From assembly GCF_028641065.1 (NCBI RefSeq), contig NC_073387.1, positions 28,830,001 through 28,894,000 of the forward strand: a stretch of DNA of 64,000 nt, given 5' to 3'. The stretch comes from Leucoraja erinacea. Taxonomy: Eukaryota. Below are positions 6,259 through 49,392 of the stretch, in pieces; the stretch's first letter is position 1, and each line of letters starts with the position of its first letter. The notes beneath the pieces were generated by a model, which worked only from the letters and a program-made list of their open reading frames with translations, was not told where the DNA came from and did not search any database. The position numbers and the translations under genes were made by a program.

Positions 6259-7176
6259 TAGCCTCTCCTGACCGCGAGCTCTTGATGGTAAGTCCGCAGG
6301 CCAAGTTTGGAGTGATCCCAGACAAGGGATTGACTCCGATGTTAAGTCCACGCCCTGCGGTGGGGCCCTAACAATTCTGCCAGTCCATTGCATCAGGAGG
6401 ACCCGGCACATGGAAGATTACCATAATCTCACCTCCGCTTGTTCATCTCCATGGCAGCCGCTACTGAACTGGCAATGAGAAAGATCCTTCAACATTGATT
6501 CACTTCGTTTTGGAAATAATGGAATAAGGATCCCAGCAGGAACCACACAGGTCTTATGTGAGTGCATGGAAATAGGTGCAAAAAATGCCAGTTTAGTGTA
6601 GGTAATCATGATATGATCTGATTTCTAAGCAATTGATTAATTGTAGTTGACGTTTCCACACACTGGTTTATTCTCCTCACATATCTGCTTTATCAAAAGA
6701 GAGTTCTTGCCCATCATTCTCTTTCAAGGTAAATTAAAAAATATTCTGAGATACTTGAGGCCCCAGCATCAAACCCTTTCGGTTACTGAAAGTTACCACT
6801 GCCTAGGTTTGATCATTTTCAGTCACAATCACTTCCCAAGATGTTACCTTGTAAGCTTGCAAATTCCAAAGCAACTTGTAAGAAATATTTAATTTAATGT
6901 TCATGGACAGTGTACTGGCTTCCAGACTGAAGCTTTGAGCCTAGGTTGTCACTGAGCAAATACTTCCCCTCAACTTCCCCCAGGTATATGTCAAACCCTG
7001 TTGCATTATCTAATAATTTCCTACTGTACTACAGTAACATAATTTATTCTGGAGCTGCATAGTATTAATGTATGTTTTCCTTAATCCATGCACCAGTTAC
7101 ATTTTTATTCATCTTAAAATCTTCTTACAAATGTTCTATTTATCATGTGTTAATTCCCAAATAAATAAGATTGCTT

Positions 7177-7403
7177 GGTTACACAAAAAAGCTGGAGAAA
7201 CTCAGCGGGTGCAGCAGCATCTATGGAGCGAAGGAAATAGGCAACGTTTCGGGCCGAAACCCTTCTTCAGACTGAAGAAGGGTTTCGGCCCGAAACGTTG
7301 CCTATTTCCTTCGCTCTATAGATGCTGCTGCACCCGCTGAGTTTCTCCAGCTTTTTTGTGTAACCTTCGATTCTCCAGCATCTGCAGTTCCCTCTTAAAC
7401 AAA
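7177..7403. mobile_element. Penelope-like element terminal remnant forming a 189-bp palindrome
   Basis: 7177-7270 and 7272-7365 are 94-bp inverted arms with one mismatch. Flanked by the 15-bp direct repeat AAATAAGATTGCTTG (7163-7177, 7404-7418). Same sequence as the 3' UTR of the PLE at 14443-15405. Confidence 0.85.
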
Positions 7404-8145
7404 AAATAAGATTGCTTGTTGACCTGTAACCAACTCCACAAAAAGATTATATATAATAAATGACAAATTGATTGCGAATCATTTTATCCTGTGCTGTCAA
7501 ATCTAAGCAATACATTAAAAAAAAAATCAACATCTATAGTAGATCAAAATAGGTGTCTGCATCTATAAAACGTATTGCAAAATGCACTGAAAGAACTGAG
7601 AAAAGATTTCTTGGAGAATGGATATGGATGGTCAGCTTTGTATTGTAACCACTTAATGCCAACAACCAATACACAATGCAGGAATCAGGACACATCACCT
7701 TACTAAATCTAGATAATGTTCAACTAATAGTGATTGGAATTGAATGTCAGCATAGCATTGGATGAGTGATCACTCAACCAACATAACAAAGTACATCGTT
7801 GACACCATCATTCACTCCAAGGCTCTTGCCACATGGCTTTATTTGAAGAGACTAAAAAAAGCATCAGCTTCTTTACAATTTATGTAGAGGAGTCTTTTCA
7901 AAGAAAGCAGTGGCGTGAAATTTGTTCAGAACACAAGTCATGAAACTGAAGTTACTGCTGATTGAAAACAGGAGAGAACTTTAATGCTTCGTGTAACTTT
8001 AGTTATATTGATTCAGTTGTCCGTTATATATCTTACTGGATTTCATTAATTATTGACATTATGGAAATGAAAGTTGAGAGAGTTGTCTAAGTCAATATCA
8101 ATCTCAGATAGAACCCAAAGGCAAACCAGTATGGTTGTTTCAACG

Positions 8146-8240
8146 TCTGAAGAAGGGTCTCGACCCGAAATGTCACCCATTCCTTCTCTCCAGAGATGCT
8201 GCCTGTCCCGCTGAGTTACTACAGCTTTTTGTGTCTATCT
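8146..8240 (+). mobile_element. PLE terminal fragment with hammerhead-like motif
   Basis: CTGAAGAAGGGTCTCGACCCGAAATGTC..., flanked by a GTTGTTTCAAC direct repeat. Confidence 0.7.
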
Positions 8241-8751
8241 ATAGTTGTTTCAACATTGTATTTATGTTTTTAGAGCGATTACACTGATGGCAATTACTCA
8301 TGAACATTGATCAAAGGTCACAATCAAGATGTCATGCTACTGAAAGCAGTACTTTGGGTTCAGATCCATCGGGGTAAGCAATATATCATTTTCATGGTCA
8401 AAAAAGGTAAACTGAGATCTCTGTTGGTAACAAACTAACAAAAAATTTACACCGATGAAATATAACACTATTTTGCTACTTGGTTGGATCACATAAGGTT
8501 AGAAAGTCTCGTTGTTTTTTTATGTTAATCAGAGTTCAAATTGCTTATGAATGATCCCCGGAGAATATGTTCAACAAAGAAAAATACAAGCTTCTGAAAA
8601 ATATAAATAAAAACTGAAAATCTTACAATTTATCTTGCTCCATTTTGTCAACATATTCAAAGGAGTAAAAAATTATGGTTTTCTTGCTTGTTATGGCTTA
8701 TTTGTCAGCTATATCTGTTTTTGTACCTTTTTCATCAACATATGGAGCATA

Positions 8752-8827
8752 ATTTTACTTCGGAGTCACGTGAGTGACTACGTGAAGAACCCACCCAGTG
8801 CGCAGGCGCGGCATTACGTCAGCAGCG
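8752..8827 (+). repeat. DIRS left terminal repeat
   Basis: 8752-8788 is complementary to ICR 13232-13268. 8779-8827 is inverted relative to 13446-13495. Confidence 0.9.
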
Positions 8828-8935
8828 CAACAGCGGCAGCAGCTGGAGCCAGGCTCTCCAGCGGCAGGATAAAGACAAGACCTCAGGTAAGTGAGTCTTT
8901 TGTGTTACAGAGAGTCGCTAACGGACGAAAAAGCT

Positions 8936-10162
8936 ATGGCTACCCGAAAGCGACCAACAAAGAGGACTGCCTGTCCAACTCCACCCGAGGAGGGGTCAAT
9001 ATCTGGGCGGCAGCCACCAGCGGCGGAGGAGCTGTTTGAACGCTCCCGCACACCCGACGCCGAGCCGCTCCCTGTGCCGCCGATTGCGACGCCCCGCACA
9101 GGGAGAAAATCAACCCGGAAAACAAACCGGCCGGTGGCCTCCGACTCGTCGGAGGAACGGGAACACTCTCCACCGGCGAAACGGGGAGACGGCCACTTAA
9201 GCTGCATGAGGCAGCTGCTCGAGCAGATGCTCGACGAGGAGATGCAGGCAAGGCATCTCCAAGGAGGACGGGCTATGGCCTCCTCCAAACCATCACCACA
9301 CCCTTCTGTTCCCTCCTTGTTTGAGGTCAGTAAGGGAGGCCAGGACTGGGCTGGCCTATCACAAGGGCAGGCGGACGACAGTGCAAGCATGCCAGGCGAG
9401 CTGGAGGAAGAAGAGCTACTGGGTGTAGTCAGCAGGTATGCGGCGCCCCCGAGGACCGGAATGATGCTAGCGCCAAGAATGGCGGCCAGTATCAACAGGC
9501 TCTCCAATAAGCCATTGCAGGAGAAAGTCATTCAAGAGGCCCTCGACACTTACACAGCGCCGGAAAACTGCGAAGCACTGCGAGTAAAGACCGTAAACGG
9601 CCAGATATGGAGCCAGCTGGGGCAGCATATCAGGACACAAGAGCTGAAGATGCAGCGTATCCTGAAGCTCCACACCGCAGCCATTACCGCCTTTGCTCGG
9701 TCCACGGGGAACGCAGAGCTCTCTACACCTCAGCAGGATGTGCTGGCCCTAATGTGCAACACACAGTATGAGCTCAACAACCTAAGGTGTGAAAACATCA
9801 GGCCTGCCCTCAACCCCAAATACGCGGGCCTCTGCAAAGCTCCGGCGCCAGAAAAGGAGGCGCTACTATTCGGGGCCGACTTGGCAAAAAGGCTCAAGGA
9901 ACTGGAAGAGGCGGCCAAACCTGTAGGCCTCATGAGGGCAGGGCCAGGACCGAGCAGGGTGAAGACACCCAGTTGGCAGCACGCCTCGGCATCCACCAGC
10001 AGGTACCGAGCTGATGAAAGCCTGGTGACCGCTTCCCACTACCCCCAGAGCTCTTTTTTAGAGCGGGGCCCAGAGCGGAGCCGTGGGAAGATACGCCGCC
10101 CCACCACAGCACCAACAAGGACACCCTCGGGCCAAACCCATCGCAAACGCTCCCAGAAATGA
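8936..10162 (+). CDS. gag: DIRS ORF1, gag-like protein (408 aa from first ATG)
   Basis: Uninterrupted ORF with a low-complexity N-terminus, then PENCEAL..VNGQIW..ELNNLRCENIRPAL..LLFGADL resembling DIRS1 gag. Stop overlaps the pol start (ATGA at 10159-10162). Confidence 0.85.
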   Translation: MATRKRPTKRTACPTPPEEGSISGRQPPAAEELFERSRTPDAEPLPVPPIATPRTGRKSTRKTNRPVASDSSEEREHSPPAKRGDGHLSCMRQLLEQMLDEEMQARHLQGGRAMASSKPSPHPSVPSLFEVSKGGQDWAGLSQGQADDSASMPGELEEEELLGVVSRYAAPPRTGMMLAPRMAASINRLSNKPLQEKVIQEALDTYTAPENCEALRVKTVNGQIWSQLGQHIRTQELKMQRILKLHTAAITAFARSTGNAELSTPQQDVLALMCNTQYELNNLRCENIRPALNPKYAGLCKAPAPEKEALLFGADLAKRLKELEEAAKPVGLMRAGPGPSRVKTPSWQHASASTSRYRADESLVTASHYPQSSFLERGPERSRGKIRRPTTAPTRTPSGQTHRKRSQK

Positions 10163-12099
10163 ACATGGAGGTAGGTGGGTCTGGTTCCTGTCGACATACG
10201 CAGACAAAGGGTGTTGTATTAACAGGAAGGCGTTTAAGGTTCTTCAAACATGTTTGGTGCTCCTTTACTAGCAACAAGTTTATACTCAACAGTATCAGTG
10301 GATACAAAATTGAATTTAAACCAGGCATAGAACCGCCGGTTCAGCACATACCCCAAAGGGTATTCCTTCCCACAGAATCAGAAAAGGTAGAAGGACAAGC
10401 TGAACTAGATAGGCTCGTGTCCAAGGGCATCATAGAGAGGGCCAGACACGAGCCATTGGAATTTGTATCGAATATATTTATCAAAACTAAAAAAGATGGT
10501 GGATGTCGCATTATCATTGATTTGACATCACTAAATCAGTCTGTTGAGTATCAACATTTCAAAATGGAGACATTTGTTACTGCCAGACAACTGATCTCCA
10601 AGGGATACTTCATGGCAAGCATAGATATTAAGGATGCTTACTATTTAGTACCCATTCATAAGGATCATTTCAGATATCTGAAATTTATCTGGATGGGGCA
10701 ACTATGGCAGTATAGAGCATTACCCAATGGTTTAACGACAGCTCCCAGATTATTTACTAAAATTCTCAAAGTGGCCATGAAAAAATTAAGAGAACAAAAA
10801 CATTTAGTCATGGCCTATCTGGACGATGTTCTCATATTGGGGCGAACAAGGGAACTAGCTGTCGCAGGAGTTTTAGCTACTAAACAGCTCCTTGAAACAT
10901 TGGGATTTGTTCTACACCCAGATAAATCAATATTGAAGCCAACAACTAACATGGACTATCTAGGCTTCACTATTGACACTATCCGTATGACTGTCACTCT
11001 GCCAAGAGACAAAAAGGCTACATTAACAGAAGCCTGTAACAACTTAATCGCAAAAACACAACCAAGGATCCGGCATGTAGCCAGAGTCATTGGTAGTATA
11101 GTAGCAGCATTTCCAGCTGCACAATATGGCCCCTTGCATTATCAGAATTTACAAAGAGCAAGGACACATGCACTACGTCTAAGTAGGGGGCATTATGACC
11201 GACCTATGGATTTACCCGCTGAAGCCAAATCAGAACTTCAGTGGTGGGTGGATAACATTTGGCACAGTTACAGTCCTATCGCCGTCACCAATCCTAACAT
11301 AGCCATTACAACGGATGCCAGTGCTTTAGGCTGGGGAGCTACTAACTCTATATCCAGCACAGGTGGCAGATGGACTAATTCAGAGGCATCGCTACTACAA
11401 TCACTTGGCATAAATTATTTGGAGATGCTGGCCGCCCTTTATGGGCTAAAAGCATATGTATCCGATATGCGGCACGTGCATGTCAGGTTAATGATTGATA
11501 ACACGACGGCGGTGTCTTACATCCAGCACATGGGTGGCATAAAATCAGTATCATGCGACAAATTGACTACTATAATCTGGCAATGGTGTGTCGAGAGACA
11601 TATTTGGCTATCAGCTGCCTATTTACCAGGCAAGCTAAACACAGTGGCGGACACCAGGTCACGAAAATTCAATGACAACATCGAATGGATGTTAGACCCA
11701 AAAATATTTGCTAGAATTGTTAAGCAATACGGTACGCCAGATATAGATTTGTTTGCGTCTAGATTAAATCACCAGCTACCCATGTATGTGGCTTGGGAAC
11801 CAGACCCAGAGGCAGCAGCGGTAGATGCCTTCATGCTGGATTGGGGAAATTTCTTCTTCTATGCTTTCCCTCCCTTCAGCCTCATCAGCCGGGTACTCCA
11901 GAAAATACAAGCAGACTCAGCTTCAGGTATTCTGGTCGTACCCGACTGGCCTACCCAACCATGGTTCCCAGTCTTCCACGACATGGTGGTAGAGTCACCT
12001 ATGGTTTTTCACAGCCACCCACAACTATTGACTCACCCGGTATCCGGCATAAGCCATCCATGCCATCAAAAATTGAAACTCCTGGTTTGTAGGTTCTGA
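10159..12099 (+). CDS. pol: DIRS ORF2: reverse transcriptase, RNase H and Dam-like methyltransferase domain
   Basis: RT: KKDGGCRIIIDL, IDIKDAY, ALPNGL, YLDD, YLG. RNase H: TDAS..WG, INYLE, IDNTT, NTVAD. MT-like: IDLFAS, YAFPPF, VVPDWPTQPW. Confidence 0.95.
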   Translation: MNMEVGGSGSCRHTQTKGVVLTGRRLRFFKHVWCSFTSNKFILNSISGYKIEFKPGIEPPVQHIPQRVFLPTESEKVEGQAELDRLVSKGIIERARHEPLEFVSNIFIKTKKDGGCRIIIDLTSLNQSVEYQHFKMETFVTARQLISKGYFMASIDIKDAYYLVPIHKDHFRYLKFIWMGQLWQYRALPNGLTTAPRLFTKILKVAMKKLREQKHLVMAYLDDVLILGRTRELAVAGVLATKQLLETLGFVLHPDKSILKPTTNMDYLGFTIDTIRMTVTLPRDKKATLTEACNNLIAKTQPRIRHVARVIGSIVAAFPAAQYGPLHYQNLQRARTHALRLSRGHYDRPMDLPAEAKSELQWWVDNIWHSYSPIAVTNPNIAITTDASALGWGATNSISSTGGRWTNSEASLLQSLGINYLEMLAALYGLKAYVSDMRHVHVRLMIDNTTAVSYIQHMGGIKSVSCDKLTTIIWQWCVERHIWLSAAYLPGKLNTVADTRSRKFNDNIEWMLDPKIFARIVKQYGTPDIDLFASRLNHQLPMYVAWEPDPEAAAVDAFMLDWGNFFFYAFPPFSLISRVLQKIQADSASGILVVPDWPTQPWFPVFHDMVVESPMVFHSHPQLLTHPVSGISHPCHQKLKLLVCRF

Positions 12100-13070
12100 A
12101 CAGGCCTTACCAGGGATTGGGGTTATCAGAACGAACAATCACCACCATGTCGGCGTCCCTGCGAGTCTCTACCAAGAAGCAGTACTTGACCTACATCAGG
12201 AAATGGGAGCAGTACTGCTTGGATGCAGGGACATCATACAAGACAGCCTCGATCACGGACGTGCTGGAATTCCTGGCCCACTTGCACCATGACCAAAAGA
12301 TGAGCTACAGTGCCATCAATGCAGCACGGAGCGCCCTGTCCGCTTACCTTATGCCTACAGGACATCACAGCATTGGATCCCACCCTCTGGTTATAAAACT
12401 CCTCAAAGGGATTTATAATACTAAACCCCCTACACCCAGATACACCCATGTATGGGACATAAGTGTAGTTTTGTCACACCTTAGAGGTTGGCCTCCGGTG
12501 GGATCCTTGAGTCTGGAGCAGTCCACTCTCAAGACCCTCATGCTTATGGCGCTCGTCTCTGCGCAAAGGGTTCAGTCACTGCATCAACTAAGACTGGACA
12601 ACATGGTAACCACCCCAGACTCCATTACATTTACAATGCCGGGGTTGGTAAAACAAAGCAGGCCAGGTATGCCCAACTCTCCGCTAATCTTCCGGGCCTA
12701 CCCTCCAGAACCTAGGCTGTGTGTAGTGACCCATCTATACAACTACGTAGACACAACCCAAACGCTTAGAGGGAGTGAAAAAGCCTTATGGGTCAGCCAC
12801 AAAAAGCCTTTTGGACGGGTTACCAGCCAGACAATATCTAGGTGGTTGAAACAGGTCTTAAAAGCCGCGGGGATTAACACGGATGTTTTTAAATCCCATT
12901 CTATCAGGGCAGCGTCCACGTCAGCGGCGGAACGGATGCAGGTTCCCATAGACCACATCCTTAGTACAGCGGGATGGTCAAGGGAATCAACGTTCCGAAA
13001 ATTTTACCACAAACCGCTGATGGAGAAGGACTTGTTTGCGGACAAAATTTTAGAATCTGCAAACTTATAA
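12093..13070 (+). CDS. DIRS ORF3: tyrosine recombinase
   Basis: Frame open from 12093, first ATG at 12147. N-terminal STKKQY..W domain. Catalytic R (AQRVQSL), HSIR, AGW and Y (FRKFY). Confidence 0.93.
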   Translation, partial: VLNRPYQGLGLSERTITTMSASLRVSTKKQYLTYIRKWEQYCLDAGTSYKTASITDVLEFLAHLHHDQKMSYSAINAARSALSAYLMPTGHHSIGSHPLVIKLLKGIYNTKPPTPRYTHVWDISVVLSHLRGWPPVGSLSLEQSTLKTLMLMALVSAQRVQSLHQLRLDNMVTTPDSITFTMPGLVKQSRPGMPNSPLIFRAYPPEPRLCVVTHLYNYVDTTQTLRGSEKALWVSHKKPFGRVTSQTISRWLKQVLKAAGINTDVFKSHSIRAASTSAAERMQVPIDHILSTAGWSRESTFRKFYHKPLMEKDLFADKILESANL

Positions 13071-13106
13071 TTTAAAGCCCAGGGGAGCTATTTTTTGTTA
13101 TTGTTA

Positions 13107-13112
13107 AATAAA
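13107..13112 (+). promoter_or_regulatory. Candidate poly(A) signal of DIRS transcripts
   Basis: AATAAA about 37 nt after the YR stop, followed by T/GT-rich sequence. Confidence 0.4.
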
Positions 13113-13231
13113 CATTTTTGTTTCAAAAAACTAACAAACTCGTTGGTCTTTAGATACCACTTCCTCCCTCGATGAACTTCAGCAGTGAGTGATATAGCTG
13201 TTACACGGTTTGAAATCACAGACCTTTGAAG

Positions 13232-13344
13232 TCTTCACGTAGTCACTCACGTGACTCCGAAGTAAAATAGTGAGATTAAACGAGTACTTACCAGTACGAA
13301 GTTTGATCTGTATTTTATGAGGAGTTACGATGAGGGATTACGTG
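13232..13344. repeat. DIRS internal complementary region (ICR)
   Basis: 13232-13268 is the exact reverse complement of 8752-8788. 13266-13344 is the exact reverse complement of 13490-13568. The two halves share AAT at the junction. Confidence 0.95.
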
Positions 13345-13445
13345 CCCTCCGCTCCCACCCTCGTTGTATAGATCAAACTCGAGCTGATGTCTCTTTAATC
13401 TTTACTATCTTTACTTCAATATTGTGTCTACCTGTGATTCCACAC

Positions 13446-13568
13446 CGCTGCTTGGAAGTATGCCGCGCCTGCGCACTGGGTGGGTTCTTCACGTAATCCC
13501 TCATCGTAACTCCTCATAAAATACAGATCAAACTTCGTACTGGTAAGTACTCGTTTAATCTCACTATT
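13446..13568 (+). repeat. DIRS right ITR plus right extension
   Basis: Inverted copy of the left ITR, followed by an extension complementary to the ICR. Ends ...CTCACTATT. Confidence 0.9.
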
Positions 13569-13776
13569 AAACATGAAATACAAATAAGCTGTGGTCTCCT
13601 TACCTGAACATAAACGTAATTTCTTAATTTAGATTTCCTTGATAAGCCACAGCTGACACAGATATAACCTGGCTACAATGATCATCTTTGCTTACTATTC
13701 ATAATAATTAAACTTTATTCTGTCATGAATGCCCTAGAAATGGTCATTTGTACAATGCTGAAAATGATTTTGTTAA

Positions 13777-14013
13777 GGGCCTGTCCCACTTTCACGACCT
13801 AATTCACGACCTTTTTTTACTCGTGAACATTTTTCATCATGCTAGTAAAAACGCCCCGACCTACTTGATGTTACGAGTACCCACGACTAGCATCACGGCC
13901 TGCTACGACCTGCCTGCGACCTCCTACGACCTCGTGACGACCATGCTGCAAGTATGAGTCAAGGGGAAACTCGGCAGAGGTCGTGAATTAGGTCATGAAA
14001 ATGGGACAGGCCC
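13777..14013. mobile_element. Complete MITE (non-autonomous DNA transposon)
   Basis: TIRs GGGCCTGTCCCACTTTCACGACCTAATTCACGACCT and AGGTCGTGAATTAGGTCATGAAAATGGGACAGGCCC, with TTAA on both flanks. Superfamily uncertain (Harbinger or Kolobok-like). Confidence 0.85.
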
Positions 14014-14442
14014 TTAAATCAGCTATGCTCATGGAAAAACAGTAGCTTGAGCCTTTCATTGAATCACATTTGACAGGAGTTTGACCAAACAGTGGCCTCA
14101 TGCAATGCTCAAGACATCGAGTTCCGCTAACTGCTATAAACTAAGCTCCTTATCAAAGGCCAAGGGCAGTTAAATCTAGCAATTTCTTCAAGTAAGAGGA
14201 ATAAATAAATAATATCACACTTCTAATTTAACGAATTGCAATGTTTATAATAAAATACAGTCAGGTGCTTGTAAATGACCATACTGCAATTCCTAAGAAT
14301 AAAGTCCCTTAACGATGGACATCAGTGAACTAAATGGAACTTTACCACAATCTTGTAATTTGATGGTTATAAAGACAAAGCTTTAATTCCAGTTGTTTAC
14401 TTCCTTCATTATACATTCACTATCTATCGTGCGATGAGGTGT

Positions 14443-15405
14443 TTAAGAAGGAATTGCAGATGCTGGAAAATCGAAGGTAGACAAAAGTGCTGGAGAAACT
14501 CAGCGGGTGCAGAAGCATCTATCGAGTGAAGGAAATAGGCAACGTTTCGTGCCGAAACCCTTCTTCAGACTGGTGTAGGGTGGGGAGAAGAAAGAAACAA
14601 GGAAGAGGAGGAGCCTGAGGGCTGAGGGAGAGCTGAGAGGGGGAGGAGACAGCAAGGGCTACCGTAAATTGGAGAATTCAATGTTTATGCTGCTAGGGCG
14701 CAGACTGCCCAAGCGGAATATGAGGTGCGGCTCTTCCAATTTCCGGTGGTGCTCACCCTGGCCATGGAGGAGGCCCAGGACAGAGAGGTCGGATTCAGAA
14801 TGGATGGAGGAGTTGAAGTGCTGAGCCACCGGGAGATCAGGTTGGTTAATGCGGACCGAGCGGAGGTGTTCGGCGAAATGATCGCCAAGCCTATGCTTGG
14901 TCTCACCGATGTAGATCAGCTGACATCTAGAGCAGCAGATGCAATAGATGAGGTTGGAGGAGATGCAGGTGAACCTCTGCCGTACCTGGAATGACTGCTT
15001 TTGTCCTTGAATGGAGTAGAGGGGGGAGGTAAAGCGACAAGTGTAGCATCTCTTGCGTTTGCAAGGGAAAGTACCCGGGGAGGGGGTGGTGCGGGAGGGA
15101 AGGGAAGAATTGACCATGGAGTTATGGAGGGAGCGGTCTTTGCAGAAAGCAGACATGGGGGAGATGGGAAGATGTGGCTAGTGGTGGGGTCACGTTGGAG
15201 GTGGCGAAAATGACAGAGGACTATTTGTGGTATGTGACGGCTAGTGGGGTGAAAGGTGAGGATTAGCGGGACTCTGCCCTTGTTGTGAGTGCGGGGATGG
15301 GCAGAGAGGGCAGTGTTGCGGGGTATGGAAGAGACCCTGGTGAGAGCCTCATCTATAGTGGGGGAGGGGAACCCCCATTCCCTGAAGAATTAGGACATTT
15401 CCCTG
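14443..15405 (-). mobile_element. 5'-truncated Penelope-like (Neptune-type) element
   Basis: GIY-YIG ORF plus 3' UTR with hammerhead-like motif. 14-bp TSD GTGYGATGAGGTGT (14429-14442, 15406-15419). Confidence 0.9.
14659..15156 (-). pseudogene. PLE GIY-YIG endonuclease domain fragment
   Basis: PCKRKRCYTC Cys motif, NLIYCICCSRCQLIYIGETK..L..F.EH, VAQHFN, RKLEE..LIFRLGSL..INIE. Confidence 0.9.
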
Positions 15406-20190: not shown

Positions 20191-21507
20191 ATGGGGAATG
20201 TCTCAGAGAAGGACCGATCAAATAGGTCAGGAAGCCCGATAAGGATAATTTGTGAGAAGCTTCCACATGAAGCAGACAAACTAAGAGGATTATCTGGATA
20301 ATTAAATGCAGTTTTGAAGAGCGAACATTGGCCATTGGGTGGACTAAAATCTGTAATAGGAATAAATTACATAGAAATGATTGTCAAAAAATATGGAAAT
20401 AGTGAAGAAGGAAATGAGCTAATTGGAATATGGAGAATGTTCTTTACTAGAAGGAAAATAAATAAAGAGATTGTTTTGCTGTCCACCTTTAGAATGGCAG
20501 CATATAAATTAGGGATTAGAGGGGAACACGAGAGAACTGATCCTTCTCGCGACATTCCAGAACAGGGACAGGAAGAACTAGTAAGCCAACAGCAGGAGCA
20601 GGAGCAGGAGATTATACCATCTTCTAAAAGGGAAACTACTGAAAAGGCTCTTAAAGGGGAGGTGCCAACAAAAATTAAATTCATTAAATTTGGTAAGAGT
20701 GCAGCAGTATCTGTAGGCCTCGAAGGGAGAGAGGCTCACTATATACCAGGGTGGGCAGAATTTTTTGGAGTAGAGCCACAGCATTCCTCACAGCACTCTC
20801 ATGTTCCCAGTTCAGAGACACCATGTGCAGCTTGCGAGCAGGGCACATGGGAGGAGTCAGCGTTATCTTCAGCTCCTCCCACTAAATTCAAATCTGAAGT
20901 GTATAAACTGGGGAAGGATCCTCTAGCTCCTATGATTGCTCCACCAGTGGAGGACAGTAAGGGAGATCAAGGAGCTAGAAGAAAGGTTCCATCAACATGG
21001 GTGCCTAAATTAATTAGAAAATCTACTAGTGGGAAAATGAAGGAATCCTTCCTGAGGTACAGAGATAGAACAAATAGCTTTTCTGAGGGTGAGATAGGAG
21101 GAGGATATAGAGGGATTGATCCGGACACTGATAATATTATTATGTCGGAGCAATTCCCTGACGATGGGGGCTTAGAACGGATTCCCCGTAGACCGTTTGT
21201 TTGTAGGGAGATACCTACTCCACCTTTGGTATTAAATGTCCCCCTGACCACAGAGGTTCAGACTTTAATGCAGTCTGATCCAGCGGCAGCTCAGAGATCT
21301 ATATTAAAGATTCAAAAAAGGGAAAAAAGGATGGAGGAATACAAGGAGGAGGAAGATCTCAAAGCTTGGATAGATCTCCCATTCCGAGAACCGACTTTTC
21401 CTCGGTTTGGCTGGAGAGGTTATAGAGCGGTCCGGCCCGATCAGTGCTACAACTGTGGGGGATGGGGACATTGTAGTCGGTCGTGTCCTGTGAGGGAGTA
21501 CTATTGA
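20191..21507 (+). pseudogene. gag: Retroviral gag-like ORF with one premature stop (TAA 20299-20301)
   Basis: Starts MGNVSEK (Met-Gly). Matrix-like WPLGG motif, Pro-rich middle, C-terminal CX2CX4HX4C knuckle CYNCGGWGHCSRSC. ATG 20191 is in frame with track ORF 20314-21507. Confidence 0.75.
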
Positions 21508-23396: not shown

Positions 23397-24050
23397 TTGG
23401 AGGGACTCTAAATGTTGAGATTTGGAACAGACGTGGAATTTGGCTTAGGAATATTTGGAGTTTGATTATTAATTTATATTGTTATTGTCTCATCCCCAGA
23501 CAGGCAGCCAAAGATGGGAAGGATTATTCAGAGAACATCAGGAAGAATGGAACTTGGGAAGATCTGGTAACATGGAAATTATTCAGGAAATATGAGAGTT
23601 GGAATTAAAGTTGGAATTAAAGTTGGAATTAAAGTTGGAATTAAAGTTGGAGGGACTCTAAATGTTGAGTCAATTTGGAACAGACGTGGAATTTGCCTTA
23701 GGAATATTTTGAGTTTGATTATTAATTTTTATATTGTTATTGTCTCATCCCCAGACAGGCAGCCAAAGATGGGAAGGATTATTCAGAGAACATCAGGAAG
23801 AATGGAACTTGGGAAGATCTGGTAACATGGATCTAAATTATTCAGGAAATATGAGAGTTGGAATTAAAGTTGGAATTAAAGTTGGAATTAAAGTTGGAAT
23901 TAAAGTTGGAATTAAAGTTGGAATTAAAGTTGGAATTAAAGTTGGAATTAAAGTTGGGATTAAAGTTGGGATTAAAGTTGGGATTAAAGTTGGGATTGGA
24001 GTTGGGATTGGAGTTGGGATTGGAGTTGGGATTGGAGTTGGGATTGGAAG
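23397..24050 (+). repeat. About 250-bp tandem duplication ending in 12-bp minisatellites
   Basis: TTGGAGGGACTCTAAATGTTGAG... at 23397 and 23647. GTTGGAATTAAA arrays at 23597-23650 and 23857-24050. Confidence 0.9.
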
Positions 24051-37669: not shown

Positions 37670-39880
37670 TTCATATGTCCCGGATGGGACAATGAAATTC
37701 TTACTTCCTGCAGCACAACAGAATATGTGAATATGAAAGCATAGTACATAATGGGAGAAGAGAAAAAAAACAAAAGGTTCAATAAATAACAAATATAGTG
37801 CAATAAAAATATAGACTTTTGCAGTTCAGAACTCAGAGCTTATTACGTGTTGTGTTTAATAGCCTGGACGTTACAGTTTTCAGGCTCCTGTACCTTCCTG
37901 ATGTCAATGGTGAAATGAGTGGGTGGCCAGGATAGTGTGGATCTTTGATGATTTTTGCTGCCTTTTTGAGGCAGCGACTATGATAGATCTCTTCGACGGT
38001 GGGGAGGTCAAAGCGTGTGATGGACTGGGCAGTGGTCACAACTTTTTGTAGTCTTTTTCGCTCCTGGACGTTCAAGCTGCTGAACCAGGCCATGATGCAA
38101 CCAGTCAGAACACTCTCGACTGTGCACCTGTAGAAGTACAGGAGAATCCTCTTCGACGCACCAAATCTCTGTAATCTTCTCAGGAAGCAGAGTCGCTGAT
38201 GTGCCTTCTTTATAATTGCATCGGTGTGCTGGGTCCAGGAAAGATCTTCGGAAATATGCACTACCAGGAATTTGAAGTTATTGACTCTCTCCACCATCGT
38301 CCCATTGATGTGAACAGGATTGTGGGTCCTCATCCTTCCCCTACCAGAGTCCACAATCAGTTCCTTGGTCTTACTGATGTAGAGAGCTAGGCTGTTGTGC
38401 AGGCGCCATTTGGTCAGTCGGTCGATCTGAATTCTATACTCTGACTCATTCAACAGAGTATAACATATTCGTCCAACAACAGTGGTGTCGTCGGCGAACT
38501 TGATGATGGAGTTTGCACTATGTCTGACTACGCAGTCATGGGTATAGAGTGAGTAAACCAGGGGGCTGAGCATGCAGCCTTGAGGTACTCCCGTACTAAT
38601 TGTTACTGAGGACAAAGTGTTTCCGCCAATTCGAACAGACTGGTCTGTGGATGAGGAAGTCGAGGATCCAATTGCAGAGGGATGCGCAGAGACCCAGTTC
38701 CGTGAGCTTGGTAACCAGCTTTGTTTTTTTTTTAATCAAAAAATGTATTCAATTATTAAAAAATAATATTTACACTACAATAAAACAAACCAGAACCCAC
38801 CACCAAAATATAATACAAATACATATCCTTAATAAACTATTATACAACTATGTTACAATCCTTATTGAGGATGCATTCAACACCCTGCGGCTTCCAGTGG
38901 ACCCGGAACCCCCTCAGGTTGCCTGTGGACAGGGCGTATTCCGGACGTAACCCCGGAAAAGGGGCAGGCAGCCGGCTCGGATAAAGCCCTCCACCGCTTG
39001 GCGCCTTGACTCGCGGATGGCCAGCTTGGCCAGGCCCAGGAGCAACCCAACCAGCCCTACCCTCTCCCCTACGCACAGGGTGTCCAAAGATGAGGATGGT
39101 GGGTGAAAAATGCAGCCAGAAGGCAAGGAGCCACTGTTTCAACACAAAGGTGTTGAAACAGTGGCTGCAGCCTCACACACTCCATGTACACGTGGTACAC
39201 AGACTCTTCCAGCCCGCAAAAGTGGCAGGCGGCTGGCGAGTCTGTGAACCGCGAGAGAAACAGGTTGCAGGGAACTCCTCGGTGCAATACCCTCCACCCC
39301 AGGTCCCCAATGTAGAGGGGGAGAATCCCTGCATAGAAGGACTCCCACCAGGGGACCCCCTCGCGACCGGAAGGCAACACCGACCGCCACTTGGTGTCCG
39401 GACGGTGGACCAGGGCGAGTAAGTGCAGGGTGTGGAGGAGGAGCCCGTACAGGACTCTCCTCCCTGCATCTCAGAGGGAGGTGAAGGTGTCGAGGAAAGG
39501 CGACTCAAGTTGTGTGGGACCGGCTCCCGGGAAGGATTACGATGCCTGGGGCTGATGAATACATCCGGCTGAATGGGGGTTTGCTCAACCGCAAGTACTC
39601 CACACGTTTGAGTCCCCCCTTGGTAACCAGCTTGGAAGGGATGATGGTATTAAACGCCGAGCGGTAGTCTACAAACAACAGCCTGACTAAGTGCTTTTAT
39701 TGTCCAAGTGGTCCAATGCGGAGTGGAGAGCCAGTGAAATTGCATCCTCCGTTGACCTGTTGTGGCGGTATGCGAACTGTAGTGGGTCGAGGTTCTTGTC
39801 GAGGTAGGAGTTGATGTGCACCATAATCAACCTCTCAAAGCACTTTATCACCACGTTAGTGCCACTGGTCGATAGTCATT
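37670..39880 (-). mobile_element. Rex1/Babar LINE fragment (RT C-terminal half) split by a Tx1-like insertion
   Basis: ORF 37833-38615: STGVPQGCMLSP..KFADDTT..SKTKELIVD..FYRCTVES. Continues at 39619-39880. Confidence 0.88.
38722..39618 (-). mobile_element. L1/Tx1-clade LINE 3' fragment
   Basis: DLGWRVLHRGVPCN..CHFCGLEESVYHVYMEC (zf-RVT-type CCHC). A-rich tail. 15-bp TSD CTTGGTAACCAGCTT (38707-38721, 39619-39633). Confidence 0.85.
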
Positions 39881-41579: not shown

Positions 41580-43635
41580 GTCAAGTCAAGAGAGTTTATT
41601 GTCATGTGTCCCAGATAGGACAATGAAATTCTTGCTTGCTGCAGCACAACAGAATATTGTAGGCATAAATACAGATCAGATCAGTGTGTCCATATATGAC
41701 AGAATATATATATAGACACACATAAATAAACAGATAAATTGCAATAGGCTGTTATAGTTCAGTTTGTTTGAAGTTGTGTTTAATAGTCTGATGGCTGTGG
41801 GAAAGAAGCTGTTTCTGAACCTGGATGTTGCAGATTTCAAGCTCCTGTACCTTCTACCTGATGGCAGCGATGGCAGCGACCTTCTACCTGATGGCAGAGA
41901 TGAGTGACTGGCCAGGATGGTGTGGGTCCTTGATGAAGCTGGGAGATGTTTTGAGGCCGCGACTGCGATAGATCAATGGTAGGGAGGTCAGAGACGATGA
42001 TGGACTGGGCAGTGTTTTCAACTTTTTGCAGCCCTTTCCGCTCCTGGACGCTCTGGTTGCCGTGCCAAACCACATTGAAACCGATCAGCATGCTCTCTAC
42101 TGTGCACCTGTAAAAGTTCGAGAGAGTCCTCCTTGACAAAACGACTCTCCGTAATCTTCTCAGGAAGTAGAGGCACTGATGTGCTTTCTTTATGATTGCA
42201 TCAGTGTTCTGGGACCAGGAGAGATCTTCGGAAATATGCACGCCCAGGAATTTGAAGTTCTTGGCCCTTTCCACCATCGACCCGTTGAAATAAACGGGAC
42301 TGTGGGTCCCCATCCTCCCCCTTCCGAAGTCCACAATCAGATCCTTGGTTTTGCTGGTGTTGAGAGCCAGGTTATTGTGCTGGCACTATTTGGTCAATCG
42401 GTCAATCTCACTTCTATACTCTGACTCGTCCCCATCAGTGATACGTCCCACAACACGTATGGAACGTAACAGTGGTGTCATCGGCGAACTTGATGATCGC
42501 ACCATGTCTGGCTACTCAGTCATGAGTATAGAGTGAGTACAGCAGGGGGGTGAGCATGCAGCCTTGAGGTGCTCCCGTGCTGATTGTTATCGAGGATGAC
42601 ACATTTCCACCAATATGGACAGGCTGTGGTCTGTGAATGAGGAAGTTGAGGATCCAATTGCAGAGGGATGCACAGAGATCCAGATCTGAGAGCTTGGTAA
42701 CCAGCTTGGAGGTGATGATGGTATTAAATGCCGAGCTGTAGTCAATGAATAACAGCCTGACATATGAGTTTTTATTGTCCAAGTGGTCCAGATCGGAGTG
42801 GAGACCCAGTGTGATCGCATCCACCATTGATCTGTTGTGGCTGTAAGTGAACTGCAGTGGGTCCAGGTTTTTGTCAAGGTATGAGATGATCTGCACCATG
42901 ATCAGCCTCTCAAAGTACTTCATAACAACAGATGTTAGTGCCACTGGTCGATGTTAGTGCCACAGGTGGGAACCTCAGACCTCAGAAGTGAGAGGTTGAA
43001 AATGTCCGACAAAACTCCAGCCAGTTGGTCCGCATAGGTTTTTAAAAGACGCTCGGGTATACCATCAGGTCCAGGCTCTTTCAGAGGGTTTACCCCTCTG
43101 AAGGATCTTCTGACGTCGTCCTCGGTGACTGTGACCAAAGTACCATCACGGCAAATGGGGGCTTGGGAAGGCACACCAGTGTTCTCCCTATCAAAGCGTG
43201 CGTAAAATGCATTGAGCTCGTCAGGGAGTGATGCTTCGCTGACATTTGAGCTGCCTCCTGATTTTGCTTTGTAGGAGGTGATTGCATTCAAGCCCCGCCA
43301 CAGTTGCCGAACATCTGTCTCATTCATTCCTGCTTGGAGCAGAAGTCCCCTTTGGCCTTTTTGGTGGCCTTACCAAGGCCGTATCTGGAATTCTTGTAGA
43401 CCTCTGTATCTCCAGACCTGAATGCCCGGGATCTAGTCTTCAGAAGAATTCGGCTCTCATGGTTCATCCAAGGCTTCTGGTTAGGAAACACTCGGAAGGT
43501 TTTTGTTGCGATGCAGTCCTCCACACATTTCTTTATGAAGTCTGTAGCGACTGTGGCGTATTCATTCAGGTCCGTTGCCACGTCCCTGAACATTGCCCAG
43601 TCTACAGACTCCAAACAGTCCTGGATTGTTCCTCT
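41580..43635 (-). mobile_element. Rex1/Babar LINE, about 2-kb fragment with frameshifts
   Basis: [59 protein letters not shown], with (CTTGA)n tail. Confidence 0.9.
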
Positions 43636-46939: not shown

Positions 46940-48164
46940 GGGGCATTCTGGAGTGCTAGTATGGGTGTTGTGGGCTGAAGGGACTGGTTTCCAGAGGGCT
47001 AGTATGGACTGTGGGCTGAATGGATTCTTGGGGTGGTGGCTCAGTCACTCAAGCCTGTTGTGCTGGCAGCTCACTCACTCACGGCTGGTGGGCTGGCAAT
47101 TGACTCACGGCTATTCCTTGAAATTCCATTTCATGCAGGGTGCAAGGCCACCAAATTCAAGTGCAGTTTCTTACCACTTCAAGCAGGGTGCAAGGCCACC
47201 AAATTCAAGTGCAGTTTCATACAATTTCAAGCAGGATGCAAGACCACTAAAGACAGCGAGTCATGACCTCTCCCTCCTCCATCTTGCAGAGACTGAGCCA
47301 TGCCCACACTTCTGTGTTTTATCATCCCTCCCTCTCTCCCACCAGAAGGGTCATGGCCTTCATGGTATGATTGACAGGAGAGAGAATCTCACCAGTTTTT
47401 AAACACTAATAACTCTTTTACTTTTCATCGATGGGAAAAATCCTTGGCACCTGATGAGCGGAGGGGGACTCTGAGTAAGGTGGCCACAAATCACAGCCGT
47501 ATGTGGTAGCATTTTTTCTAAAATCAATATAAGGTGCAAACAGGAAGTGATCAAGATTAGACTTTTAATTATATAGAAGTCAAGGCAACTTTAATTAGGC
47601 AAGGCAACTTGAATTAGGCAAGGCAACTTTAATTAGGCAAAACACAGCTTTAGCATTTCCAAACCAAAGGCAACACAGCTTTAGCGTTTCCAAACCAAAG
47701 GCAACACAGCTTTCACATTTCCAAACTAAAGGCAACACAGCTTTCACATTTCCAAACTAAAGGCAACACAGCTTTAGCATTCCCCAAACTATATTTTCAA
47801 ACCACATTAAGGGCACTAACAGGTCAGTAAAACCACTCACAGTTTAGTAGACATGTGCTCAGTGTTATTCACAGCTCAGACTGAGAGACGTGACCCTCTC
47901 ACTCCCCCATCTTGCAGAGACTGACTGAGGCACTCAACACTTCCGGGTTTTATAGTGGCCTTCAGGAGAGAGAATCTCAACATTTTTTAAACACTAATAA
48001 CTTTATTTTTTCATCAATGGGAAAAATCCTCTTGTCCTGTGCAGCGGAGGGGGGACTCTGAGTAAGGTGGCCAAAAATCACAGCCGTAAGTGGCAGCGTT
48101 TTTTTCTAAAATCACTATACAGAACAACAGGAAGTGGTCAAGATCAGACTTTTATTAATATAGA
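46940..48164 (-). mobile_element. Non-autonomous Helitron-like element with two 5' termini and internal minisatellites
   Basis: Minus-strand TCTATATTAATAAAAG at 48164 and TCTATATAATTAAAAG at 47577, each heading a related roughly 300-bp block. Homologous to the CTAG-ending piece at 1-225. Confidence 0.6.
47580..47785 (+). repeat. 18-bp x3 and 31-bp x5 tandem repeats
   Basis: AGGCAACTTTAATTAGGC units and AACACAGCTTTAGCATTTCCAAACCAAAGGC units. Confidence 0.85.
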
Positions 48165-48423: not shown

Positions 48424-49392
48424 ATGTGGCGGCGCTGTTAACAGCTGCGGCTCGCCTGCAGTCCGTCTGTCTTTACTTTTTTCTGTTGTTTTTTTTGTCT
48501 TGTTTTGGTTAAGTTTTAGTTTGTTGGGTTGTGTTAGAGGGGGTGAAACATGTGCTCTGTCTCTTCCTTCAGGGGAATGCGACTTTTTCGTGTCGCATCC
48601 CCCTTCTCTGCCTCAGTCTGTGCTGAGGCCTAATGGCGGAGCTGGCGGCCTCCAACCTGCGACCGACCCCGAAACTCCGGAGGCAGAGCCAGCCAGGACT
48701 TACCAACGAGAGGCTGGCCGTCTTCGGGGCTAAGGCAGCGGTGGCCCGACTTGCTGGTGCGGCGTTCTGGCTTTCAGCGGCGGCCTGGAGCTGATGCAGT
48801 GGGGCTCGGAGCTGAGACTGCAGGACCCAGAGCTGGGGCAGCGGCCTGGAGCTGGGGCAGCGGCCCGGAGCGGAGACTGCGGGACCTGGAGCGGAGACTG
48901 CGGGACCCGGAGCTGGGGCGGCGGCCCGGAGCTGGGGCGGCACTGCGGGCCCGGAGCTGGGGCGGCGGCCCGGAGCGGAGACTGCGGGACCCGGAGCTGG
49001 GGCGGCGGCCTGGAGCGGAGACTGCGGGACCTGGAGCTGAGGCGGCGGCCTGGAGTGGGGGCGGTGGCCCGGAGCTGGGGCGGCGGCCCGGAGCTGGTGC
49101 TGTGGCGGGCCATCTCGGAGCGGCGACGGCGTTCCGGCTTTCAGCGGCAGCAACATCACCACGGAGGTCCGCTGGACTGGAGACCGGCATCTTCGGCCTG
49201 GATCGATCGCCTCAGCGCAGAGGGAGAACAAGGAGGGAAGAGATGGAGACTAAGACTTTGCCTCCATCACAGTGAGGATGTGCTTGGTGAACTCACTGTG
49301 GTGGTTGTTTAATTTGTGTTTATTGTATGTTTTGTTATTATTGATTCTGTGTATGACTGCAGGCAACATAATTTCGTTCCGACCGAAAGGTC
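48424..49392 (+). mobile_element. GC-rich non-autonomous retroposon with internal minisatellite (about 48780-49100)
   Basis: Head, T-rich linker and hairpin as in 22283-23210. GGAGCTGGGGCGGCGGCCC and GGAGCGGAGACTGCGGGACCC units. Runs into the assembly gap. Confidence 0.65.

Follow-up and report, generated by a model that had tools for sequence, protein, structure and literature searches.

A 64,000-nt stretch of the Leucoraja erinacea genome (assembly GCF_028641065.1, contig NC_073387.1, positions 28,830,001 to 28,894,000 of the forward strand; hereafter the window, to which all positions refer) contains at 8752-13568 one full-length, 4,817-bp DIRS1-like retrotransposon. Its termini are complete and its three frames are open, it belongs to a multi-copy family, and the site that it fills in the window is empty in a close relative. 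We interpret it, with considerable confidence, as one of many copies of a tyrosine-recombinase (YR) retrotransposon family of the type with short inverted terminal repeats (ITRs) and non-overlapping frames, inserted at an ATT by its YR and expressed through a proposed combination of −1 frameshifting and splicing. The element is a new copy, or family member, of the already known DIRS1-like class and is itself ordinary for that class; the larger point is the expression model. Published work, cited below by PMC identifier, is represented by excerpts.

Anatomy and coding capacity

The termini, the internal complementary region (ICR) and the coding frames are as follows.

8752..8814, + strand: left terminus, with ATT (8752-8754), divergent ITR (8752-8778) and conserved ITR core (8779-8814), in the nomenclature of PMC3266345
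13232..13344, + strand: ICR, with left half 13232-13268, right half 13266-13344 and junction AAT 13266-13268
13460..13568, + strand: right terminus, with core (13460-13495), divergent ITR (13496-13522) and right extension (13523-13568) ending in ATT
8936..10162, + strand: gag-like open reading frame (ORF), 408 aa, similar to gag of related DIRS elements
10018..12099, + strand: pol ORF, with leader, reverse transcriptase (RT), RNase H (RH) and methyltransferase (MT)-like domain
12093..13070, + strand: YR frame of 325 codons, the first ATG being codon 19 (12147), with R159, K187, H269, R272, W295 and Y305

ICR positions 13232-13268 are matched exactly, in reverse complement, by the left end (8752-8788; 37/37) and ICR positions 13266-13344 by the right end (13490-13568; 79/79), while the ITR core at 8779-8814 recurs in inverted orientation at 13460-13495 with 36/36 identity. 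Both ICR halves overlap on AAT (13266-13268), the 3-bp circular junction, and ATT stands at both ends of the element (8752-8754 and 13566-13568). The assignment to the DIRS1-like class is based on terminal repeats that are inverted and non-identical with a right extension, an ICR complementary to both ends whose halves overlap on the 3-bp junction, the presence of gag-like, RT/RH and YR ORFs, and an MT domain 3′ of RH, recognized by its DLFA and YAFPP motifs. The divergent ITR measures 27 nt, the conserved ITR 36, the right extension 46 and the ICR 37-79, and a long ORF overlap is absent; in the terms of PMC3266345, the 79-nt right match comprises the 46 nt of the right extension and 33 nt of the right ITR. 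The element contains no long direct repeats like the split direct repeats of Ngaro or PAT-like elements, its repeats being inverted, and no second copy lies within the window.

The gag, pol and YR frames are all stop-free, that of gag extending over 8891-10162 with its ATG at 8936. Pfam matches were obtained for RVT_1 (E 1e-16) and for Phage_integrase (E 8e-9) with an N-terminal SAM-like domain, and the Dam match of the window pol is weak (E 0.098). The pol motifs YLDD (10816), TDAS (11311), NYLEM (11413), IDN (11494), DLFA (11746) and YAFPP (11860) and the YR residues R159, H269, R272 and Y305 are those that we take to be catalytic. The RH call is based on motifs and on the five of 30 aligned pol relatives that match RT_RNaseH; among the same relatives 22/30 match Dam and 26/30 match PCIF1_WW. 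Gag has no real Pfam family match, a hit to 'Exotoxin A targeting' (E 0.063) being discarded as noise, and its look-alike atlas clusters are mostly mollusc or arthropod, a weak resemblance with a recognition value under threshold. The element is intact in the sense that its frames are open; protein function is predicted. A preliminary description of the window had proposed a DIRS1 element with three uninterrupted ORFs, retained motifs and a readable circle junction, and our recomputation returned its ICR and ITR identities exactly and bore out both the frames and the junction logic.

An empty orthologous site and the age of the window copy

Four sequencing runs of 24 candidates were aligned to 7410-14440, namely the DNA runs X2 (organism A) and X3 and X4 (organism B, two samples from one study) and the RNA run X24. 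X2 differs from the window flanks at 1 position in ~1,790 letters of six contigs, and one of its contigs spans the left junction (8535-8774) with 0 differences, so X2 is the window's species and perhaps its source. In both organism B runs (2/2) the flanks are joined directly within one 532-nt contig each.

8460..8754: left flank up to and including ATT; in organism B it runs on into the right flank (532-nt contig, X3 and X4)
13574..13799: right flank in the same empty-site contigs of organism B (X3 and X4)

The depth of these contigs (28.7 and 36.4) is like that of the adjacent unique contigs (26-29 and 26-48), and the orthologous site in organism B is empty with a single ATT kept. The preliminary description had predicted such a site, and the single ATT was found as predicted, but 11 letters rather than five separate it from window position 13574. 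These six extra letters, which lie within the next few bases after ATT, count against a perfectly clean insertion; the simplest reading is a minor indel in the flank, a few bases away from ATT, because the right-hand match restarts at 13574 and not at 13569. The flanks differ between the window and organism B by 32/2,008 and 33/2,008 substitutions (1.6%), a value equal to the 1.6% heterozygosity reported for the little skate (PMC10115646).

The family is multi-copy in organisms A and B, with single contigs inside the element reaching depths of 503 and 926 versus 11-48 in the flanks (summed contig depth is not usable as a copy number). In all three DNA runs, 93-100% of the family depth departs from the window copy at no fewer than 10 positions, namely 8974, 9195, 9577, 9788, 10014, 10843, 11437, 11459, 12458 and 13181. 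This private divergence of 0.21% (confidence interval (CI) 0.10-0.38%) is about one quarter of the per-lineage flank divergence (~0.8%); of the nine coding differences, five alter a residue and four are synonymous (p 0.26 against neutrality). At the mutation rate of the epaulette shark (7e-10 per generation; PMC10587355) it would correspond to millions of generations, on a rate from another species and with some of the changes possibly coming from a rare source copy. In X24 (~5% sampled), reads on the element number 1-35 per bin on each of the two strands, and 38/38 informative read-sites at nine private positions carry the family letter (0/38 from the window copy).

The preliminary description had called the element very young on the strength of its exact ICR matches, and a candidate for activity; both statements went too far, given the 0.2% divergence from the family and the origin of every informative RNA read-site in other copies. 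Identity between ICR and termini is a weak dating tool because it is normal for DIRS1 elements (theoretically 100%, PMC3266345; also 100% in both halves of the related elements L002, L024 and L077) and because 0 mismatches in 116 ICR positions bounds divergence only at <2.5%, such an outcome having a probability of 0.61 at 0.21% divergence. By comparison with the species pair the window copy counts as young but not as brand new, and it is at most a candidate for activity.

We also considered that the window copy might be very recent, still active and polymorphic in the window's own species, which we regard as improbable though the most serious of the alternatives. All frames are open, the empty allele lies only as far away in the flanks as two alleles of one little skate would, the second alleles of X2 match organism B at 8400-8515 and 14153-14184, and some of the 10 differences may derive from a low-copy source (4/9 coding differences being synonymous). 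This view has to accommodate the differences from nearly the entire family depth in three DNA runs and the uniformly family-type RNA read-sites. Moreover, the X2 left-junction contig continues into the element at a depth of 37.9, close to what the two alleles upstream give together (25.8 + 15.4), and the contigs listed for X2, whose coverage has a hole at 13615-13660, include no empty one. That hole and the spread of X2 depths (11 to 41) nevertheless leave room for X2 to be heterozygous at the insertion. At 8370-8545, X2 has two alleles that differ by 11 letters and one gap across 175 nt, and the non-window allele has the gap and five listed substitutions in common with organism B.

Predicted frameshift and splice signals

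Three signals in the element could connect gag with pol and with the YR.

10054..10060, + strand: TTTTTTA heptamer in gag phase, predicted frameshift site, at which a −1 shift would enter the pol frame
10171..12092, + strand: predicted 1,922-nt intron containing RT-RH-MT, with phase-0 donor GAG/GTAGGT at 10170/10171 and acceptor TTTGTAG/GTT at 12092/12093
11864..11879, + strand: second in-phase acceptor after FPPF, with a higher score; P0001 and P0118 lack the site (they read FPPFC)

The donor at 10170/10171 lies just 3′ of the gag stop, and the TAG of the acceptor at 12092/12093 also closes the YR frame, at the point where this frame opens. The gag stop overlaps a pol-frame ATG (ATGA, 10159-10162), so stop-restart translation would be a possible second route into pol or YR. 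Two further signals were noted: an AATAAA at 13107-13112, between the YR stop and the ICR, the use of which would give a coding mRNA without the ICR and unable to replicate, and a perfect donor CAG/GTAAGT at 8887/8888 (8887-8893) in the 5′ leader. The leader donor was rejected as the start of a general leader splice, a strong donor being found there in only 4 of the 22 families with a left end.

The signals were identified first in the window and then examined on 88 related loci with 37-58% pol identity. From the 88 loci and the window, two without an FPPF anchor were dropped (86 kept), and the rest formed 58 families at 80% DNA identity. The 14/58 families without 45 codons before RT were left out of the donor and slip counts, and the 13/58 that were short or without a YR in the expected frame were left out of the acceptor counts. 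A phase-0 donor, defined by at least 5/7 consensus positions within 126 nt before RT, is present in 42/44 families, as against 28/528 control windows within pol. In 37/44 families gag occupies the +1 frame (four unresolved, three other), and for 28 of these 37 the overlap contains an in-phase slip heptamer, TTTTTTA in 19, against a background of 24 in 9,176 gag codons. An in-phase acceptor scoring at least 9 precedes the first YR helix in 43/45 families, after FPPF in 22 and at the pol end (+75 to +77) in 14. The acceptor and the stop at the opening of the YR frame are at most 10 codons apart in 33/45 families, versus 136/1,265 control stops, and in 18/45 families no Met precedes the first YR helix. 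In the 2 × 2 acceptor table of 26 families, the frame is closed upstream in 14/16 families with a pol-end YAG and in 3/10 without (p 0.0085, too generous a value since families are related). A third acceptor position, ~51 codons after FPPF, was seen in four families (L033, L047, L061 and L087).

Two RefSeq models of Strongylocentrotus purpuratus, P0329 and P0333 (XP_011683648.1 and XP_030847864.1), have a leader ending in PLPKE joined to VMRQ of the YR, and one of them begins with gag. Unspliced sea-urchin calls read MLQVMRQ, and the models join the leader E to the residue after CAG. The longer skate YR calls P0279 and P0281 were considered as splice products and rejected; they are unspliced read-through of the genomic frame.

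Proposed expression model

We propose that one promoter would give Gag, that a −1 frameshift at TTTTTTA on the unspliced RNA would give Gag-Pol (~1,054 aa), and that the same frameshift, once RT-RH-MT has been spliced out, would give Gag-leader-YR (~737 aa). On the evidence of conservation across the families, we consider this scheme likely. A broader proposition, in our judgment evenly balanced, is that the non-overlapping DIRS1 elements of marine animals share an undescribed scheme in which one −1 frameshift feeds both enzymes and RT-RH-MT is a facultative intron. The unspliced RNA would then serve both as Gag-Pol mRNA and as genome, and the spliced RNA would encode a Gag-YR fusion through which the recombinase enters the particle. 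On this broader view the acceptor would have shifted during evolution between the FPPF motif and the pol end, a movement that would explain the varying YR/pol overlap between families, and the skate family would perhaps be an invertebrate import. Splicing or slippage in DIRS elements is not described in the main texts searched, including PMC4157794, PMC6681497, PMC2685390, PMC9210276, PMC3266345 and PMC13465315, so that an earlier description elsewhere is possible; the same excerpts are silent on the way in which a single transcript yields both pol and YR in these elements. Exact junction coordinates follow from the conserved slip site, donor and acceptor, and existing skate, sea urchin or oyster RNA-seq could be checked for them.

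Several observations weigh against this model. The splice scores are simple home-made consensus counts, the families are related and their counts non-independent, and the acceptors overlap protein motifs (FPPF, CR) that give pyrimidine tracts anyway. The upstream acceptor at 11879/11880 is the stronger (score 14 versus 10) and would lead into the TAG at 12090-12092. No splice joint is among the 15 joints listed in the read contigs (a further 347 fall outside the list), at an RNA depth of 1-35 reads per strand per bin, and no significant structure lies 3′ of the slip site (z −1.13), leaving a stimulatory hairpin unsupported. The sea-urchin joins are known only from automated RefSeq models, and an unspliced pol with the sea-urchin leader was searched for and not found. 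Finally, the window departs at 10228-10230 from a glycine kept in 28/29 relatives.

A first alternative, which we consider unlikely, is that the YR is functionally dead, either because the TAG at 12090-12092 is a nonsense codon in a longer, overlapping YR frame or because the acceptor at 11879/11880 wins. Upstream of the TAG, 109 codons of the frame are free of stops (by synonymous recoding, a run of 109 has a chance of 0.02 and one of 70 a chance of 0.07), the sister subfamilies P0118, P0279 and P0281 have Q at the TAG position, and the FPPF acceptor is used by 22/43 families. However, 9/9 loci from the 23-row clade of the window lack the FPPF acceptor (quick tree), the frame is closed upstream in 14/16 families with a pol-end YAG, and a TAG that doubles as acceptor is common in relatives. 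Position 12090 is not among the near-100% differences listed, a hint that other copies have the TAG as well.

It is likewise doubtful that production of the YR needs no splice to gag and relies instead on internal initiation at ATG 12147, on re-initiation or on a second frameshift at the pol end. That ATG is in good context, and PMC13003380 quotes Poulter and Butler 2015 to the effect that the Ngaro YR is probably reached by frameshift. Only four bases (12093-12096), however, separate the YR-frame stop from the pol stop codon, 18/45 families would have no Met from which to initiate before the first YR helix, and the conserved phase-0 donor would be left unexplained.

Probable mode of replication and insertion

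Following the established model summarised in PMC7192593, the transcript would lack the outer ends, the cDNA would restore them on the ICR, and the ends would then join on the trinucleotide in a circular intermediate, the YR recombining the ATT of the joined ends with a genomic ATT. The pair of filled and empty sites fits the last of these steps, and as an allele pair in a cartilaginous fish it fits the trinucleotide integration model and is a possible marker. No circle joint is among the 15 joints listed in the read contigs, which cannot separate a circle joint from the ICR. In Dictyostelium the ICR of DIRS-1 is essential, the cDNA is mainly linear and single-stranded, and inverse PCR failed on the circle junction (PMC7192593); outward PCR may accordingly fail even for an active element.

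Insertion would have taken place after the filled haplotype split from the empty haplotype of organism B, with the ~0.2% of differences gathered since. It is very improbable that the site was instead filled in the common ancestor and that organism B later shed the element through an excision, YR-mediated or recombinational, with a 6-letter footprint, for although YR reactions are reversible and six extra letters do lie beside ATT, the private divergence of 0.21% (CI 0.10-0.38%) is below the ~0.8% per lineage in the flanks, and the restart of the right match at 13574 rather than 13569 fits a flank indel.

Comparison with known and related elements

The mollusc elements LgDIRS1/3 and AcaDIRS1/2 (Piednoel et al. 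2011, PMC3266345) share with the window element ATT at the start and end, the AAT junction, the lack of a long ORF overlap, a conserved ITR of 31-36 nt, a right extension of 46-49 nt and a size of 4.7-5.8 kb. Divergent ITR, conserved ITR and right extension measure 35/31/48 in LgDIRS1 (ICR 39-86), 36/32/48 in AcaDIRS1 (ICR 45-88) and 27/36/46 in the window element (ICR 37-79). The latter differs in its vertebrate host and in slightly shorter ICR halves (37-79 versus 39-45 and 86-88), and the likeness is one of sizes, not of sequence. Dictyostelium DIRS-1 shares the ITR and ICR architecture, gag, RT/RH, YR and the trinucleotide integration model, but has ITRs of ~300 nt and a long YR/pol overlap (PMC7192593). 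The DIRS-like families of teleosts and Xenopus are also vertebrate and DIRS1-like, with an MT domain and an ICR (PMC3266345; PMC9210276), whereas the window element shows neither their ITR core length of 102-148 nt nor their long overlap of ORF2 and ORF3, nor the LAP2alpha-type gag of Xenopus.

Among skate relatives, P0001/P0158 (pol 90%, YR 85% identical) and L. erinacea XP_055488383.1 (79% identical across 45% of pol and 73% across 82% of the YR) have the architecture and protein family of the window element but represent separate subfamilies; they differ from it in having CAG rather than TAG at the pol-end acceptor and FPPFC rather than FPPFS. The sea-urchin models XP_011683648.1 and XP_030847864.1, in which a DIRS gag or leader is joined to the YR at the position predicted in the window, belong to a YR cluster 48% identical to that of the window and are labelled 'uncharacterized protein', not retrotransposon product.

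Among the best 120 pol and best 120 YR proteins, the only named vertebrate matches are L. erinacea models. Beyond the sister subfamily (90% pol, 85% YR), the next proteins stand at ~60% and the nearest non-skate pol at 61-62%, the named non-skate relatives being echinoderm, bivalve and arthropod. An invertebrate clade may have been the source of the skate family. Since vertebrate annotation usually masks transposon ORFs, and because DIRS elements are counted as ancestral in vertebrates (PMC4350176), horizontal transfer is not claimed. DIRS1-like elements with spliceosomal-type signals were also found in bacterial metagenome-assembled genome records (L081-L087) and in a viral-collection contig (L088), which are most likely animal host DNA binned by mistake.

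Other features of the window

A palindromic short repeat family, resembling miniature inverted-repeat transposable elements or short interspersed nuclear elements, has many copies in the window (7172-7402, 8145-8240, 14440-14581 and others) and stands at extreme depth in all four runs, the 8145-8240 copy dominating the listings of joints and differences. Broken retroelement remains lie on the − strand at 14662-15389, 37836-38735 and 41840-42385, with a weak GIY-YIG match (Penelope-like) and RT pieces like those of long interspersed nuclear elements. The window contains 288 N and, at 20302-21504 on the + strand, a stop-free frame of 401 codons with no Pfam match. Tandem arrays occupy 23597-24045, 47581-47789 and 48777-49097, with units of 12, 19/31 and 19-40 nt, respectively.

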